Assembly (NCBI GenBank): GCA_944393235.1
Contig: CALXZJ010000002.1
Coordinates: 1,739-65,738, forward strand
Direction: 5' to 3'
Source: an uncultured Alphaproteobacteria bacterium
Lineage (GTDB): Bacteria; Pseudomonadota; Alphaproteobacteria; RF32; CAG-239
Length of the DNA stretch: 64,000 bases
The position numbers and the translations under genes were made by a program. This document shows, piece after piece, positions 41,753 through 49,598 of the stretch (positions are counted from its first letter, which is position 1; each line of letters starts with the position of its first letter). The notes below the pieces were generated by a model. The model searched no databases. It worked only from the letters and a program-made list of their open reading frames with translations, and was not told the origin of the DNA.

Positions 41753-44700
41753 ATGAGTAAAGAAGTCTTAACACATTCGGAAAGATATGTTCGTAAAACC
41801 AATCGCATTATTTTAATCATTGGTATAACGTCTTTTATTGTGTTTTTATTCGGACTTTTACTATTATTATCCAGCGGCACGCAAACAACGGAGTATGAAG
41901 AACCCGTTTTTACCGAAGACGACGATGCATTAAATTTAGGCAACAATGTTAACCCTTTAATGGACAACATAGAATTTGAAGATGTTGATGAGAGCGAACT
42001 TCCAATAACCACAACGCCTAATCCGGTTAATATGGGGCAGGTCGTTTTAGGAACTGAAGCTAAAAACGTGTTAACAATTGGAACCAACGGCAAGGCGGCT
42101 ATTCGCATTGTTTCTGTTAAATTGGCAGAACCGCCGTTTGAAGGGTTTACATTCAGCGATGGTTGTACAAGTGCTGAGCTTCGCGGTAACCAAACTTGCA
42201 ACATTACCATGAATTGGGCGCCGGTGGTGGCAGGCAATGTACAAAACAACTTTATTGTTTCGTGGCACGAAACTAATGTCAGCGCTCAAAATGCCAAAGC
42301 ACAAAAAATCCCGGTTGACGGCAATGCCGTTAGCAAGGAAGACTGTAATTTTTGCGCAACAGCTCCTGGCGCCGATTTGGGTGAAGGCATGGTCGTTCGT
42401 GATGAAGATGGCAATACAATCGGTTATATAACCCCGGATGGAAAAGCCGTAGATTTAAATGGCAATGAATTAGGGATAATCAACGCCGATAATCAAGTTG
42501 TTGACAAAGATGGCAGTATTATAGGTCGCGTAACTGCGGATGAAACCAAAACAAGAGTTGCTTATGGTCCAAATGGCGAAATTATAGGTTACATAGACGA
42601 AGATGGTTATGTCCGCGATGAAAACGGCAATATTATTGGTCGCGTTAATGAGAATGGATTGGTTGTTGATGAAAACGGCAATGTTATCGGCATTGCCGGA
42701 AACAAAAAGCTTATCTACGATGAAAACGGCAATGTCATCGGCTATGTTACGGCCGACGGGCAAGCTGTTGATTTTAACGGCAACCCTATCGGGCATCTGA
42801 ATGCTGATGGCAGCATCGTCGATGCAAATGGCAATATCATTGGCAAGGCTGTTGAAGCCGGCTATGTCTACGATGAAAATGGCAATATCATCGGCCGTGT
42901 GTTAGAAGATGGTACGGTTGTAGATATGGAAGGTAACGTTATTGGTCGCATGAACGAAAACGGTGAAGTCGTTGACATGAATGGCAACGTCATAGGTTAT
43001 GTCAGCCGTTCAGGACAAACAGCAATTGATGAAGAAGGTAATCCGATAGGTGTTGTTATGCCGGATAACTCCATCGTTGATGAAGAGGGCAATATTGTTG
43101 GTTATGTTGATGAAAATGGTGATGCCTATAAATTGACCAATGAAAAAATTGGCCAAAGCGGCGCATCACGACGGTTGTATTATGATGAAAACGGTAATGC
43201 AATAGGTTATATTGATGAAAACGGCAACATTATAGACTTTAACGGTAACAAAATAGGTCAAGTATTGTCTGATGGAACAGTTCTTGATGCCAATGGCAAC
43301 GTCATCGGAAAGATGTTGGAAGATGGCACCATTGTTGATGAAAACGGCAATGTCATCGGTCGTGCCGGAGAATATGTCAATTTAGCCCTTGATGAAAATG
43401 GTAATGTTATTGGCTATATCAATAGCAAAGGCGAGGTTATCGGCAAAAATGGCGAGGTGATTGGGTATGTTGACAAAGACGGCAATGTTATTAGCAATCA
43501 AGCCGTAAAAATCGGCGCAGTCGTTCAGACAGAATTAATACCGATAACGCCTGCCGGAACAATATTAGGAATGGTGTCGCCGACAGGAGAAATTATCAAT
43601 GAAAAAGGACAGAGTTTTGGTCGAATATTGCCCAACAGCCTCGTACGCGATGCCAACGGCTCAAAAATAATTGCAAGAGGTTTACAAGGCGGCACAATAG
43701 TAGGATGGGGCTGCAGCAATGTTGGTCAGCTTCATCAAGATGGAACAATAACCAAAAATGGTCAGGAAATGCCTTATAGCATTTATCCTGATGGCGGTGT
43801 TTATAACAATAACGGACAGTTTCTCGGCAATGTCGTTCCGACCGGACGCGTTTTTGACAACCAGTGCAATTATTTAGGAATGGCTAATGAACAAGGTATT
43901 GTACAGTCAGACGACAAACGTTATGTTGGCTGTGTCAATCCTGACGGCTCAGTTTTAAATGATAATGGAGATATTATCGGCAAAGTGGCACAATATAAAA
44001 TAGCCGTTAATGCTAAAGGGCAAATTATTGGCAGAATGTCCCCCGGTGGCACCATTATTTCCGGAGCTATGCTGCCCATAGGATGCAGCAATGTTGATGG
44101 TGAAGTCTTTGATGAAGAAGGTGCATACCAAGGGAAACTGGTCGAAAAGTTCTATGCGTTTGATTTAAATGGAACATATTTAAATACGTTTCAAAATGAC
44201 GGTTCGTTAAATTTAAAACAATATCCGGACGCCCGATTGTTTTTACATAAATACATTGTGAACAGCAACAATAAAATCATCGGTATGGCCTTTCCGGCAA
44301 GAAGCGTTGTTGTAAATGCCAATGGCGACATCTTGGGTCGATTGTTTGCCGACGGCAATATTTATAACGGGGACGGTGTCGTTGTTGATAAAATATATGG
44401 CGATGGCCTAAGCTTTTATACCGGAAATGTCGGAAAGATTTTGCCGTTAGGTGCAGTGGTTAACAACACGGGACAAAAGGTGGGCTTTGTAAACCCTGAT
44501 GGCAAAGTTTTAACCCGCTTTGGAGAATTTCTTGGTCGGGCTGATGCCAAAGGGCGTTGGCTAGATGCCAAAGGAGCATACGCCGGTGGTGTCGTACGCC
44601 AAGGTGCGGCGATTGGTTATGATGGATCCTATTTAGGATATGTTAAAGCTGACGGTAGCGTAGTGAATATGTCAGGAGATATTACCGGTTATGAAAGTGG

Positions 44701-48300: not shown

Positions 48301-49598
48301 ATTTAATTGGCAAAAAAATGCCGGATGGTTTGATTATAGATGATGATGGAAGTTTAATCGGTATTGAAGAAGCTAAGAACATTACTGCCGGGCAAATGTT
48401 TGTTCCGGCTGGCACATTTGGCTCCGGAGGTGCTTATGGTACAGGAGTCGCCCCGACCAATTTAGGACCCGGTGGCGGGTTTGGCCCTGGGGAGCGATAT
48501 GATCCGGTTCGTTCACAGGCTCTGGCGGCAGCACAGGCAGCAAGGCGAGGTGAAATTACCGTCGGAAGATTAACAACGCAGGTTAAGAGAGAAGATTTTG
48601 ACGGCAAACAAAACTATTGGGAAGGTGTACCGCGTCAAATTTCTAGTTGGCCTGTGGATATGAGCGAAATGATTTTAGAGGACAAACCGATACCGGCGGT
48701 TTTGGCAAGAACAATTATGTCCGGAGGCGGCACTGTCCCGGTTACGGCAATTGTAGAAAGAAACGTTTATGCTGAAGATGGCAGAAATATTGTTATACCT
48801 GCCGGTAGTCGTGTGATGGGAGAGTCGTCAGGCACAAGCGGCAGTAACAATAAAAGTGCCGTCAGAGTTGCTATTACCTGGAATCGTTTAATTCGTCCGG
48901 ATGGTTCTGCTTTTGAGTTTTCAACAGCTCAAACCGGAGATGCCCAAGGACGTGCCGGTGCATTAGGATATGTGGATGAGCAGTTGCTCAAAAAATATAC
49001 ATTGCCGATGGTTACCAATCTTTTGAGCAGTGCTGTAGCTTATGTTGCTGCCAGCGGCGAAACAAGTACTGATAGTAACGGTAATACGGTCGAAAACGCC
49101 CGTGCTGAGGCAGCCGAGGACGCTCGTCAAAACTTCTTGGATAATATGGATCAAATGTTTCAGGAGATTCTGTCAGATAAAACCAAAATTGAAGCTGTGG
49201 CATATGTTCCGGCAGGTACGCGCTTGATAATTTATCCGAAAGAAGATTTATGGCTCAGAACGCCGGAACGCAGTCAAGAAGAAGCTTTACAGGATCTTCA
49301 AAAACCGACGGTACTTATTGATGACCGTGATCCTACTGGTTCAAGAAACAACAGAAACACGAGCGGAGGCGGTGGCGGCGGAAGCAATTCTACGGGAACC
49401 TCACCTGGTACAAGCGGCGTGGTTTATATGGATGATAGCAATGAAAACATCCAAGCTTCTACGCCTTTGATAAGTGATTCTTCAAACAAAAAGAAAACGC
49501 CGCCGTCGCGGTCAATTCCTCCGGTAACTTCCACCGGGGCAACGCCGCCGCCGCCATCTTCTACCGGCAGCAATAACACTTCGGCGCAATTGTTTTGA
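45381..49598 (+). CDS. virB10: Giant VirB10/TrbI-family protein (~1405 aa) with the same repeat family N-terminal to the VirB10 barrel domain
   Basis: GTG at 45381 with a GGAGG RBS 7 nt upstream. It has an N-terminal anchor/signal helix and ~880 aa of G.V.D..G..IG repeats. A Pro-rich segment follows (KPEPVKPADWATPPTNQ...PTPQPESP). The C-terminal TrbI/VirB10 core is IPAVLARTIMSGGG.VPVTAIVERNVYAEDGRNIVIPAGSRVMGE...ITWNRLIRPDGSAFEF...GDAQGRAGALGYVD. The tail is G-rich then P/S/T-rich. Confidence 0.85.
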   Translation: MFEKIKKTILWFNISFAAILLAIKPVYAQEITAIDFNGDLIGKVIPDGTVISFDNAIIGNVTADSFIVNAKGELIGGVIPQGIAVGNDNKLLGRVNNDGSVRLPSGKIVGKVLPNALVVDDSYNILGSVLYPGLVYDDAGKTIGRLTGDGAYISLEGQNIGFISPLGYAYRNTGNGFVLDGKLISSKMVVSPDGNFIGSLTPGGKVTDFNSKDIGFIHANGYVYNDNNQIVGKTVSNGYAFDNLGKYLGLIAYNGEVINNGQTVAKFRADNKIIDEKGNVIGFAVDIAATATDLQGKYLGRLMPGGKIAQAREVVGTVGARGYIWNNDGEIIGQIVKAGPVFDYHGNLAAQALRNGTIISTGGTVLGYAKSNQAYDNIGRLLGASMDSRLVFDNSNNFLGLSGIGSDFINNGAKLKISPFGYVYSADNVLVGHTIGLEALYAESGKTEGYAGINGNLEGIPQEHNYKLTQFGTIVDSQNAMVAASINPLFVVGENEEELGYLAENNLLINKKQEVVAKILPEYKVVSSSAKVNEQTMPIIGSVGTSPLAIGVNGTMLGYVDLKGIVQDYSGNKIGVMLDGNTVADNNNSIIGQTIDFKAIVNDKCEFLGVVGSKGDVRNNRDIILGKILTNDQVISEVGNVIGFGVKSGNMIDFEGKPLGTVNTLGQILNYAQEKLGCIRSDGRFYNADEHFIGSLAQPAPVMNFENIIIGRSDLNNQLINDKSKTIGYIRPDNTAVSLEGEILGTSFKYKVAFDDENSFLGRVAENGNVVSDKNDILGQVQYDGTVVADNKPIGFALYDFYIYDENNKTIGYITRDGLVVSFSGARLGKADKGFLVDKNYVLIGRGSRDYFVRDENNNVIGELSLNGEVINTEGKVIGNVSANGEVRDSEEKVLGRAWDLQYYNVNKPEPVKPADWATPPTNQGQIKVDAVPTPQPESPGEYGLKAIGIALTPDGNYLGDILANNDVIDKGGNLIGKKMPDGLIIDDDGSLIGIEEAKNITAGQMFVPAGTFGSGGAYGTGVAPTNLGPGGGFGPGERYDPVRSQALAAAQAARRGEITVGRLTTQVKREDFDGKQNYWEGVPRQISSWPVDMSEMILEDKPIPAVLARTIMSGGGTVPVTAIVERNVYAEDGRNIVIPAGSRVMGESSGTSGSNNKSAVRVAITWNRLIRPDGSAFEFSTAQTGDAQGRAGALGYVDEQLLKKYTLPMVTNLLSSAVAYVAASGETSTDSNGNTVENARAEAAEDARQNFLDNMDQMFQEILSDKTKIEAVAYVPAGTRLIIYPKEDLWLRTPERSQEEALQDLQKPTVLIDDRDPTGSRNNRNTSGGGGGGSNSTGTSPGTSGVVYMDDSNENIQASTPLISDSSNKKKTPPSRSIPPVTSTGATPPPPSSTGSNNTSAQLF

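Follow-up and report, generated by a model that had tools for sequence, protein, structure and literature searches.

A probable two-gene VirB10 built on beta-hairpin arrays in the type IV secretion locus of an uncultured alphaproteobacterium

VirB10 of type IV secretion systems (T4SSs) is a single chain that spans both membranes and is regarded as linking ATP use at the inner membrane to gating of the outer-membrane channel. How, then, is a locus to be understood in which two giant open reading frames (ORFs), here called A and B, stand where one virB10 gene is expected? The locus lies in a 64,000-nt stretch of DNA (the window) from an uncultured Alphaproteobacteria bacterium of the GTDB lineage RF32; CAG-239 (assembly GCA_944393235.1, contig CALXZJ010000002.1, positions 1,739 to 65,738, forward strand). 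We consider it probable, with some reserve, that A and B together constitute the two-chain VirB10 of a chromosomal P-type T4SS resembling the Rickettsiales vir system, and that this VirB10 forms an enlarged scaffold in the periplasm. Coordinates of all features are given in Table 1.

ORF B ends in a TrbI/VirB10 domain. The PF03743 TrbI profile aligned over positions 2-188 of 188 with B aa 1111-1305 (109.8 bits, cut-off 35; E 1.9e-31), which upholds the description in an earlier note, made from the DNA alone, of two giant repeat proteins with one of them a VirB10 ending in TrbI; the failure of this region against TrbI/VirB10 hidden Markov models (HMMs), named there as grounds for rejecting the claim, did not occur. 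Sequence matches of the domain in the PDB comprised ComB10 (2bhv, the best at 1.4e-18), Xanthomonas citri VirB10 (6gyb), CagY, and TraF, and Foldseek matched the B model to 6gyb_C at probability 0.75. As to the two-helix antenna with which VirB10 forms the outer-membrane pore, two long helices within the domain (model residues 1083-1106 and 1123-1151) were modeled with a predicted local distance difference test (pLDDT) score <60. B fell below the NCBIfam equivalog cut-offs (NF038091, 92.5 vs 220 bits; NF038092, 107.6 vs 300) and on these profile scores reads as a divergent member of the VirB10 superfamily, not an equivalog. It occupies the VirB10 gene position, the order being virB9, A, B, virB11 both here and in related loci. 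The poly-Gly and P/S/T-rich tail noted earlier is present; its sequence varies among relatives, but its end is almost invariably ...(Q/E)L(F/L), and a conserved "VVY" stands further upstream.

ORF A is identified by its N-terminus. By hydropathy its sole N-terminal hydrophobic helix covers aa 15-46 (~30 residues), and the AlphaFold2 model has a helix at aa 11-39. The block aa 1-46 has an identity of 0.74 across orthologues, and its cytoplasmic motif also opens fused, single-chain VirB10s. The immunoglobulin (Ig)-type domain behind it scored below cut-off by sequence (Pfam ASH, E 2.5e-4; NCBIfam choice-of-anchor D, 1.4e-5), and Foldseek matched it at probability 1.0 to 6fvi, 2e6j, and 2ys4, which are ASH/PapD-like; a CNFC motif follows at aa 198-201. 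Hydropathy and Foldseek thus bear out the transmembrane anchor and Ig-like module that had been proposed for the first ORF.

The same module heads single-chain VirB10s in more distant relatives. In locus L004, one 2,683-aa ORF fills the gap between virB9-SPOR and virB11; its N-terminus (MNEELLSSSDQYLRKSNRMLLIIG...), transmembrane helix, and Ig-like module correspond in alignment to A aa 1-205, and the ORF ends in TrbI. L007 (2,112 aa) and L008 (1,507 aa) are fused likewise, with no separate A gene. Anchor and barrel are on the same polypeptide in all three; in the window, the inner-membrane anchor and the cytoplasmic motif are both on A and not on the barrel chain B. Ten database proteins of 1,498-2,363 aa also combine an A-type N-terminus with TrbI in one chain; a search with the A N-terminal module over 1.8 billion representatives, which returned mostly unrelated multi-ASH-domain proteins, yielded six fused VirB10s. 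Because the A module is the N-terminus of fused VirB10s, we regard A as the N-terminal half of VirB10. The two ORFs had been called paralogous; both are indeed repeat proteins, but they are not merely paralogues, as A bears the N-terminal module of single-chain giant VirB10s.

A scan of one genome per GTDB species with an alignment of the TrbI domain gave 386 relatives, the best 80 of which are all metagenome-assembled genomes (MAGs) of uncultured Alphaproteobacteria from guts (human, mouse, ruminant, horse, rabbit, and reindeer), the human sources including Hadza, Nepali, and UMGS/HGM catalogues. Three bins carry other labels (L019, Lachnospiraceae; L059, Bacteroidaceae; L069, [Ruminococcus] gnavus), and these contigs are probably mis-binned or the MAGs mislabelled. 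An A-type ORF lies immediately 5' of a B-type ORF in 72 of 88 related loci from gut and rumen MAG species, 13 are truncated by contig ends, and three are fused. All five truncated loci inspected (L025, L077, L081, and L086 among them) keep an upstream A-type ORF ending in ...NRRN. The order virB9-A-B-virB11 is retained even in a lineage at 44% identity, and more than 1000 full-length relatives of B have 44-78% identity and the same Pfam architecture. A-type proteins range from 1,088 to >2,233 aa and B-type proteins from ~1,400 to 2,372 aa; the longest cases are L086 (positions 3-6701), where the A-type ORF exceeds 2,233 aa although truncated by the contig, and L077 (2974-10089), with a B-type ORF of ~2,372 aa. 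A and B lengths are inversely related (Spearman rho -0.49, p 0.0015, n=40 species, uncorrected for phylogeny and weak as support), and their sum, 2,832 +/- 178 aa, varies less than independent variation predicts, which hints at a constraint on total array length.

In place of a membrane anchor, B is predicted to carry a cleaved Sec signal peptide with an AxA-type site, and the mature protein would begin with QEITAIDFNGDLIGK. B-type N-termini have a basic n-region, a hydrophobic core of ~15 residues, (A/V)-x-A, and then (Q/A/N/I)-E-I-T-A-I-D-F. In 129 distinct orthologous B N-termini, the residues A, S, and C fill position -1 (100%), A, V, T, S, or G occupies position -3 in 97%, and the rest of the signal segment drifts freely. 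It is this retention of the -3/-1 small-residue rule while the remaining segment varies that argues for cleavage.

The junction of the two genes has a conserved layout. AGGAGG is located 5 nt 5' of the ATG of ORF A. The longest frame of ORF B comprises 1418 aa from ATG 45342 (45342-49598, forward strand); its real start is probably GTG 45381, which lies 2 nt past the A stop and is preceded by GGAGGA. Both ORFs thus lie at the coordinates given earlier (41753-49598), on the forward strand, with the start of B probably shifted. In nine of nine loci compared, which span the clade (the window, L001, L005, L016, L023, L043, L044, L063, and L084), GGAGGA lies within the last A codons and B starts 2-5 nt past the A stop, with GTG or TTG as the start codon. 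We read the A and B genes as translationally coupled from this layout. The C-terminal tetrapeptide of A, NRRN, is strictly conserved, and its codons contain the Shine-Dalgarno sequence of B; the conservation is explained at least partly by these codons doubling as the B ribosome-binding site.

Between their terminal modules both proteins consist of repeats with a period of 17 aa, runs of units standing at exact 17-residue spacing and delimited by an (I/V/L)(I/L)G motif. Mean BLOSUM62 self-similarity at lag 17 is +0.81 in A (shuffles -0.89 +/- 0.08) and +0.26 in B (shuffles -0.91 +/- 0.08), and the TrbI region, taken as a control, lacks a peak at this lag. The dozens of consecutive ~16-17-aa units reported earlier are thereby confirmed, and the example string EDGTVVDMEGNVIGRMNENGEVVDMNGNVIGYV is located at A aa 384-416. 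Where the earlier note went astray was in holding that the repeat could not be assigned to a named bacterial family: PF21785 (Bflower_2) scores 257.5 bits in A and 179.5 in B (cut-off 38), in nine separate stretches per protein, and PF21784 (Bflower) scores 116.7 and 54.8 bits (cut-off 25). The likeness to DUF3659, described as loose, is a significant match (PF12396; A 139 bits, E 4e-41; B 31.7 bits, cut-off 24.8). The [DNEQ]xxG tip motif of beta-flowers is also present, positions 5-6 of the A units being D/N-G (0.78/0.89) and positions 10-13 D-x-N-G.

The beta-flower Pfam families were created in 2023 (Durairaj 2023) for a fold seen in the AlphaFold database, a shallow barrel of four, five, or six hairpin "petals" (8-, 10-, or 12-stranded) with [DNEQ]xxG tips, no known function, and no relative in the PDB; its members include lipoproteins and proteins in which a hydrophobic helix is enclosed (PMC10584680). 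A match to a known domain with an unrelated role would have spoken against the earlier proposal, and the families matched here are ones with no known function. Described beta-flowers of these families (clan CL0395) are single domains of ~96 residues, in contrast to the ~50 tandem hairpins per T4SS protein in the window.

AlphaFold2 models made with orthologue alignments (A aa 9-1208; B aa 131-1330) agree with the suggested beta-hairpin unit. The A model has 110 strands (~55 hairpins) and the B model 92 (~46 hairpins, aa 131-1010), with ~5 additional units at B aa 45-130 outside the model and a median hairpin spacing of 17 residues. The hairpin series is unbroken in both, with pLDDT mostly >90 in the B array and 80-90 in the A array, and the predicted template-modelling (TM) score (pTM) is 0.65-0.66 for both ~1,200-residue models. 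The high pTM and the high pLDDT across the arrays suggest that they would form an ordered, rigid body instead of a flexible string or beads. Searches of the PDB by sequence found no solved structure for A, and Foldseek searches of the PDB with both models gave matches for the Ig and VirB10 domains alone, leaving the repeats without a solved relative. Multi-propeller proteins were rejected as the repeat fold, the best Foldseek matches of the repeats reaching TM-scores of only ~0.06-0.08.

No tandem DNA repeats were found in window positions 41000-50000, which indicates that the repeats are old and diverged. L004 has 168-nt tandem DNA repeats at 7623-8416 (4.7 copies, 82% matches) and 9629-10439 (4.8 copies, 75%); the unit equals 56 aa, that is three hairpins and a linker, and we take these repeats as a sign that in some lineages arrays lengthen through recent tandem duplication, the duplicated module holding three hairpins. 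B shows a weak hint of a 51-aa higher-order period (lag 51 > lag 34); a domain size could not be defined from this periodicity and the 56-aa units, both hints being too weak.

Conservation along the arrays is uneven. The first ~14 hairpins of B (aa 42-270) have, over aa 35-270, an identity of 0.7-0.8 to the window protein across orthologues, level with TrbI, and the middle repeats only 0.3-0.5; being as conserved as TrbI and more so than the middle repeats, the N-terminal hairpins point to a putative specific binding surface. Orthologue alignments have four invariant Cys in the middle of the A array, and invariant Cys occur in B too. Together with the Cys pairs of the Ig domain they would suit an oxidising compartment, which fits a periplasmic location.

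In the two-chain VirB10 that we propose, A would be inserted N-in in the inner membrane, with its cytoplasmic motif, anchor, Ig domain, and ~55 periplasmic hairpins, and B would be exported by Sec and lose its signal peptide, contributing ~51 periplasmic hairpins and the TrbI barrel, which would take its place beside VirB7 and VirB9 within the core complex of the outer membrane. Translational coupling would ensure that A and B are made together; their arrays would associate non-covalently in the periplasm, and the association would restore the inner-to-outer-membrane bridge as a much enlarged scaffold, functionally like the expansions of CagY and DotG. The periplasmic location of the arrays, their copy number in the complex, and the formation of a scaffold we infer. 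An enlarged periplasmic or outer-membrane complex, as the earlier note supposed, is a reasonable conjecture. The wider proposition, that in a whole clade of gut Alphaproteobacteria VirB10 has been naturally cut into a piece at the inner membrane and a Sec-exported piece at the outer membrane, and the envelope-spanning, energy-sensing bridge rebuilt non-covalently by two arrays of beta-flower hairpins, we put forward tentatively, as possible rather than probable.

How the split arose bears on this proposal. A BLASTP comparison with L004 is neatly collinear, A aligning to residues 2-1298 and B to 1274-2556, as a simple fission would have it; the collinearity fails for the other fused proteins P0157, P0163, and P0168, and simple fission is therefore not established. 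In a mapping of 102-aa windows, only the N-terminal module and the TrbI end are collinear between fused and split forms. Neither local alignment nor profile HMMs, built from the A C-terminal and the mature B N-terminal 45 aa, found remnants of "VAxNRRN" or "EITAIDF" in the fused proteins. In a neighbour-joining tree of TrbI with ComB10 and X. citri VirB10 as roots, the split forms group as a single clade with 71% bootstrap support, the fused forms lying outside this clade; a basal P0168 group in the first tree was discarded at ~1% bootstrap support. We take the fused state as ancestral because canonical VirB10 is one chain with anchor and barrel, in which case the split would be a single derived event.

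Several points weigh against the two-chain reading and the history that we attach to it. A one-to-one mapping of repeats between fused and split forms failed by window mapping, local alignment, and profile HMMs alike. The first hairpins of B best match fused residues ~319-360, that is, the first hairpin block and not the middle; given this resemblance, tandem duplication followed by complementary loss may account for the pattern no less well than a simple fission. Within the giant family, the TrbI tree does not place the root with support. The hairpins may be arranged as closed four-, five-, or sixfold flowers or as one continuous body, and the physical association of A with B is a step that we infer. 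Neither VirD4 nor a polytopic VirB6 was found in the 64-kb window. Lastly, the hydrophobic N-terminus of B might stay uncleaved as an anchor, with A then an accessory protein.

This last point leads to the alternative that B alone is a complete VirB10 with an uncleaved signal-anchor and A a truncated paralogue, an accessory part of the core at the inner membrane and in the periplasm, in the way that DotF stands beside DotG. The basic n-region and 15-residue hydrophobic core of B could span a membrane, tandem duplication predicts the match of the first B hairpins to the first block of fused forms, and over 900 aa the repeats of A and B share ~25% identity. We nevertheless find this alternative rather unlikely, since the -3/-1 pattern of the 129 divergent B N-termini is what cleaved signal peptides typically show, the hydrophobic core of B is short compared with the transmembrane segment of A, and the cytoplasmic motif of all fused and all A forms is missing from B.

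The arrays could instead constitute a surface-exposed structure, which the earlier note had allowed, and one that is host-facing and variable, with a part in adhesion or immune evasion such as has been suggested for the middle repeats of CagY. The wide span of array lengths among species, the recent DNA repeats of L004 with their implication of expansion by recombination, and the animal-gut habitat of the carriers would all suit such a role. The topology disfavours it, both arrays being placed ahead of the TrbI barrel and behind the anchor or signal peptide. The region between anchor and barrel is periplasmic in solved VirB10 complexes (PDB 3jqo, 6gyb). The lack of DNA-level repeats in the window and the invariant Cys within the arrays also argue against surface variation, and the conservation of the N-terminal B hairpins at the level of TrbI is the opposite of antigenic variation; we judge this alternative quite improbable.

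It is very improbable that A is an unrelated repeat protein, of a cell-wall-binding or RHS/YD-like kind, that is a chance neighbour or a cargo of the system. A does match RHS_repeat (E 1.7e-10) and YD_repeat_2x (42.6 bits), but no individual RHS stretch is over threshold, the unit is 17 aa, profile searches of A found no RHS core, toxin, or cap domain, and Foldseek TM-scores against the TcB/TcC and SGS1 cocoons are ~0.06. Moreover, the non-repeat N-terminal module of A is that of fused VirB10s, and in every complete locus A lies strictly between virB9 and virB10 with the B ribosome-binding site embedded in it. An artefact of sequencing or assembly, or one giant gene turned pseudogene by a frameshift, which A and B overlapping or abutting in different frames and the frame-broken A gene of L025 (a locus containing Ns) might suggest, and which the earlier note had listed as a way for its claim to fail, is scarcely credible given that the split recurs in 72 MAGs, independent at species level and drawn from many studies, and given the full-length orthologues at 44-78% identity on hundreds of independent contigs, the conserved stop/ribosome-binding-site/start layout with a signal peptide right after the junction, and the lack of DNA repeats able to collapse in assembly.

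The comparison made earlier with the repeat-inflated VirB10s CagY and DotG holds. Like CagY (Cag7) of Helicobacter pylori, which is part of an enlarged core complex that includes a ring in the periplasm (PMC13417560, PMC9371333), B has a C-terminal TrbI domain (matches to 8cb2 and 6x6j, E 1e-5 to 8e-7) behind a very large repeat region. The repeat arrays of CagY change by recombination, comparable to the 168-nt repeats of L004. CagY has its 1,927 aa in a single chain, whereas here there are two chains of ~2,600 aa in total (>3,600 in relatives), and beyond TrbI the window proteins have no sequence or fold match to it, the repeats being unrelated in sequence. CagY repeats are helical and Cys-rich, not 17-aa beta-hairpins. 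DotG/IcmE of Legionella has a VirB10-like C-terminus after a long array of short repeats and is part of a greatly enlarged core complex (PMC7511231, PMC8486379). Unlike the window repeats, those of DotG are pentapeptides, and DotG retains its own membrane anchor; the Dot/Icm dome (9ngw_A) was a weak Foldseek match at probability 0.18. DotF, a bitopic protein of the inner membrane that is separate from DotG within the Dot/Icm core complex, is by analogy a possible functional counterpart of A, although unlike A it is not derived from the N-terminus of VirB10. With canonical VirB10, TraF, and ComB10 (Agrobacterium tumefaciens, pKM101, X. citri, and H. pylori ComB), B shares the full-length TrbI domain, the virB9-virB11 position, and a proline-rich segment ahead of the barrel; the canonical proteins are single chains of ~380-450 aa with their own transmembrane anchor, in contrast to the separate anchor protein and ~106 hairpins found here.

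What is new relative to CagY and DotG is the type of repeat, the size, and the spread over two genes, the barrel half having a signal peptide. In the literature on beta-flowers and DUF3659, on giant or split VirB10s, and on T4SSs of RF32 or gut Alphaproteobacteria that we could search, no account of this protein family turned up, though papers may exist; public annotation has "TrbI/VirB10 family protein" and "DUF3659 domain-containing protein". A conserved two-chain VirB10 would show that covalent continuity is dispensable and would allow the halves to be studied separately. The beta-flower/DUF3659 hairpin would gain its first defined cellular setting, in the periplasmic portion of a T4SS, and hundreds of orthologues are available for structural work; if the proposal is true, the fold would also acquire a first biological role, that of a scaffold that associates with itself in the periplasm. 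Solved core complexes have 14 copies. By extrapolation from 14 copies the VirB10-derived mass would be ~4 MDa, and the protein, if the proposal is true, the largest known T4SS core component. Carriers are common in human, mouse, ruminant, horse, and rabbit gut metagenomes, and their T4SS, unusually elaborate and vertically conserved, offers a clue to how these poorly known, uncultured gut Alphaproteobacteria act on their neighbours or host.

Table 1. Features of the T4SS locus and its surroundings (window positions)
Feature	Position	Strand	Remarks
Tcp-like type IVb pilus cluster	13137-24651	mostly -	TcpQ, secretin, PilO-like, T2SSE ATPase, T2SSF platform, PilT-like ATPase
VirB2/TrbC-like pilin	25232-25717	+	Pfam TrbC 7.8e-9
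VirB2-like pilin frame	from ~26009	+	119 aa, stop-to-stop
VirB2-like ORF, unusually long	26380-27447	+	355 aa, weak TrbC match
VirB3-like ORF	~27545-27800	+	85 aa, just 5' of virB4
VirB4	27783-30269	+	T4SS cluster
Four signal-peptide proteins	30322-38214	+	no Pfam/NCBIfam match
Three of these, ORFs	30322-32178, 32123-32833, 32778-34079	+	signal peptides, no family match
Acidic protein	34090-38214	+	1,374 aa, signal peptide, apparently coiled-coil-rich; directly 5' of virB8
VirB8	38214-38984	+	profile match
Lipoprotein	39131-39319	+	62 aa, signal MYKKIVLLIAILILTAC, lipobox LTAC; between the two VirB8 genes
Second VirB8	39345-40094	+	profile match
VirB9/CagX with C-terminal SPOR	40115-41737	+	540 aa, Gly-rich linker
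ORF A	41753-45379	+	1208 aa; proposed inner-membrane-anchored half of two-gene VirB10
A cytoplasmic tail and transmembrane helix	41753-41890	+	aa 1-46; short basic tail, motif S-E-R-Y-V-R-K-T-N-R, single helix
A Ig-type beta-sandwich	42005-42322	+	aa ~85-190; ASH/PapD-like, invariant Cys pairs
A array	42389-45343	+	aa 213-1197; ~55 beta-hairpins of 17 aa, beta-flower/DUF3659 type
Coupling junction	45365-45383	+	A end codons AAT CGG AGG AAC TAA (NRRN-stop) enclose Shine-Dalgarno GGAGGA
ORF B	45381-49598	+	~1405 aa from GTG 45381; proposed outer-membrane-complex half of VirB10
B signal peptide	45381-45464	+	28 aa; predicted signal peptidase I cleavage after ...KPVYA, before QEITA
B array	45465-48071	+	aa 42-910; ~48 beta-hairpins
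B linker	48072-48215	+	aa 911-958; proline-rich, pLDDT <50
B further hairpins	48216-48365	+	aa 959-1008; three, well conserved
B Gly-rich segment and predicted helix	48366-48671	+	aa 1009-1110; conserved GPGGGFGPGERYDP
B TrbI/VirB10 C-terminal domain	48672-49256	+	aa 1111-1305; Pfam TrbI full profile
B low-complexity tail	49257-49595	+	aa 1306-1418; G6 run, P/S/T-rich, ends ...QLF
VirB11 ATPase	49615-50586	+	profile match

The neighbourhood resembles that of a known alphaproteobacterial system. The rvh gene order is virB8-virB7-virB8-virB9-virB10-virB11-virD4, with several large VirB6 paralogues in addition. Like rvh, the window locus is alphaproteobacterial and chromosomal and has the order B8-lipoprotein-B8-B9-B10-B11; unlike rvh, it has no virD4 after virB11 and no polytopic VirB6 paralogues within the window, its VirB9 bears SPOR, and its VirB10 is giant and split. 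The 62-aa lipoprotein is probably VirB7; L005 and L006 have a gene of 62 aa at the same site, and L007 has one of 59 aa. SPOR domains bind peptidoglycan. The SPOR match of VirB9 scores 20.4 bits here (Pfam cut-off 21) and 25.5 bits in L004 and is weak in L007; a SPOR-tagged VirB9 is unusual and older than the split of VirB10.

The four signal-peptide ORFs occupy the slot expected for VirB5/VirB6-type proteins, and none is polytopic; a 1,417-aa gene takes the position of the acidic protein in L005. Rfam and tRNA scans of the window were both empty of RNA genes. Downstream of the T4SS cluster, engB and yidC lie on the opposite strand; addAB and xerC-like genes are located 5' of the cluster, and the Tcp-like type IVb pilus cluster adjoins the T4SS locus.

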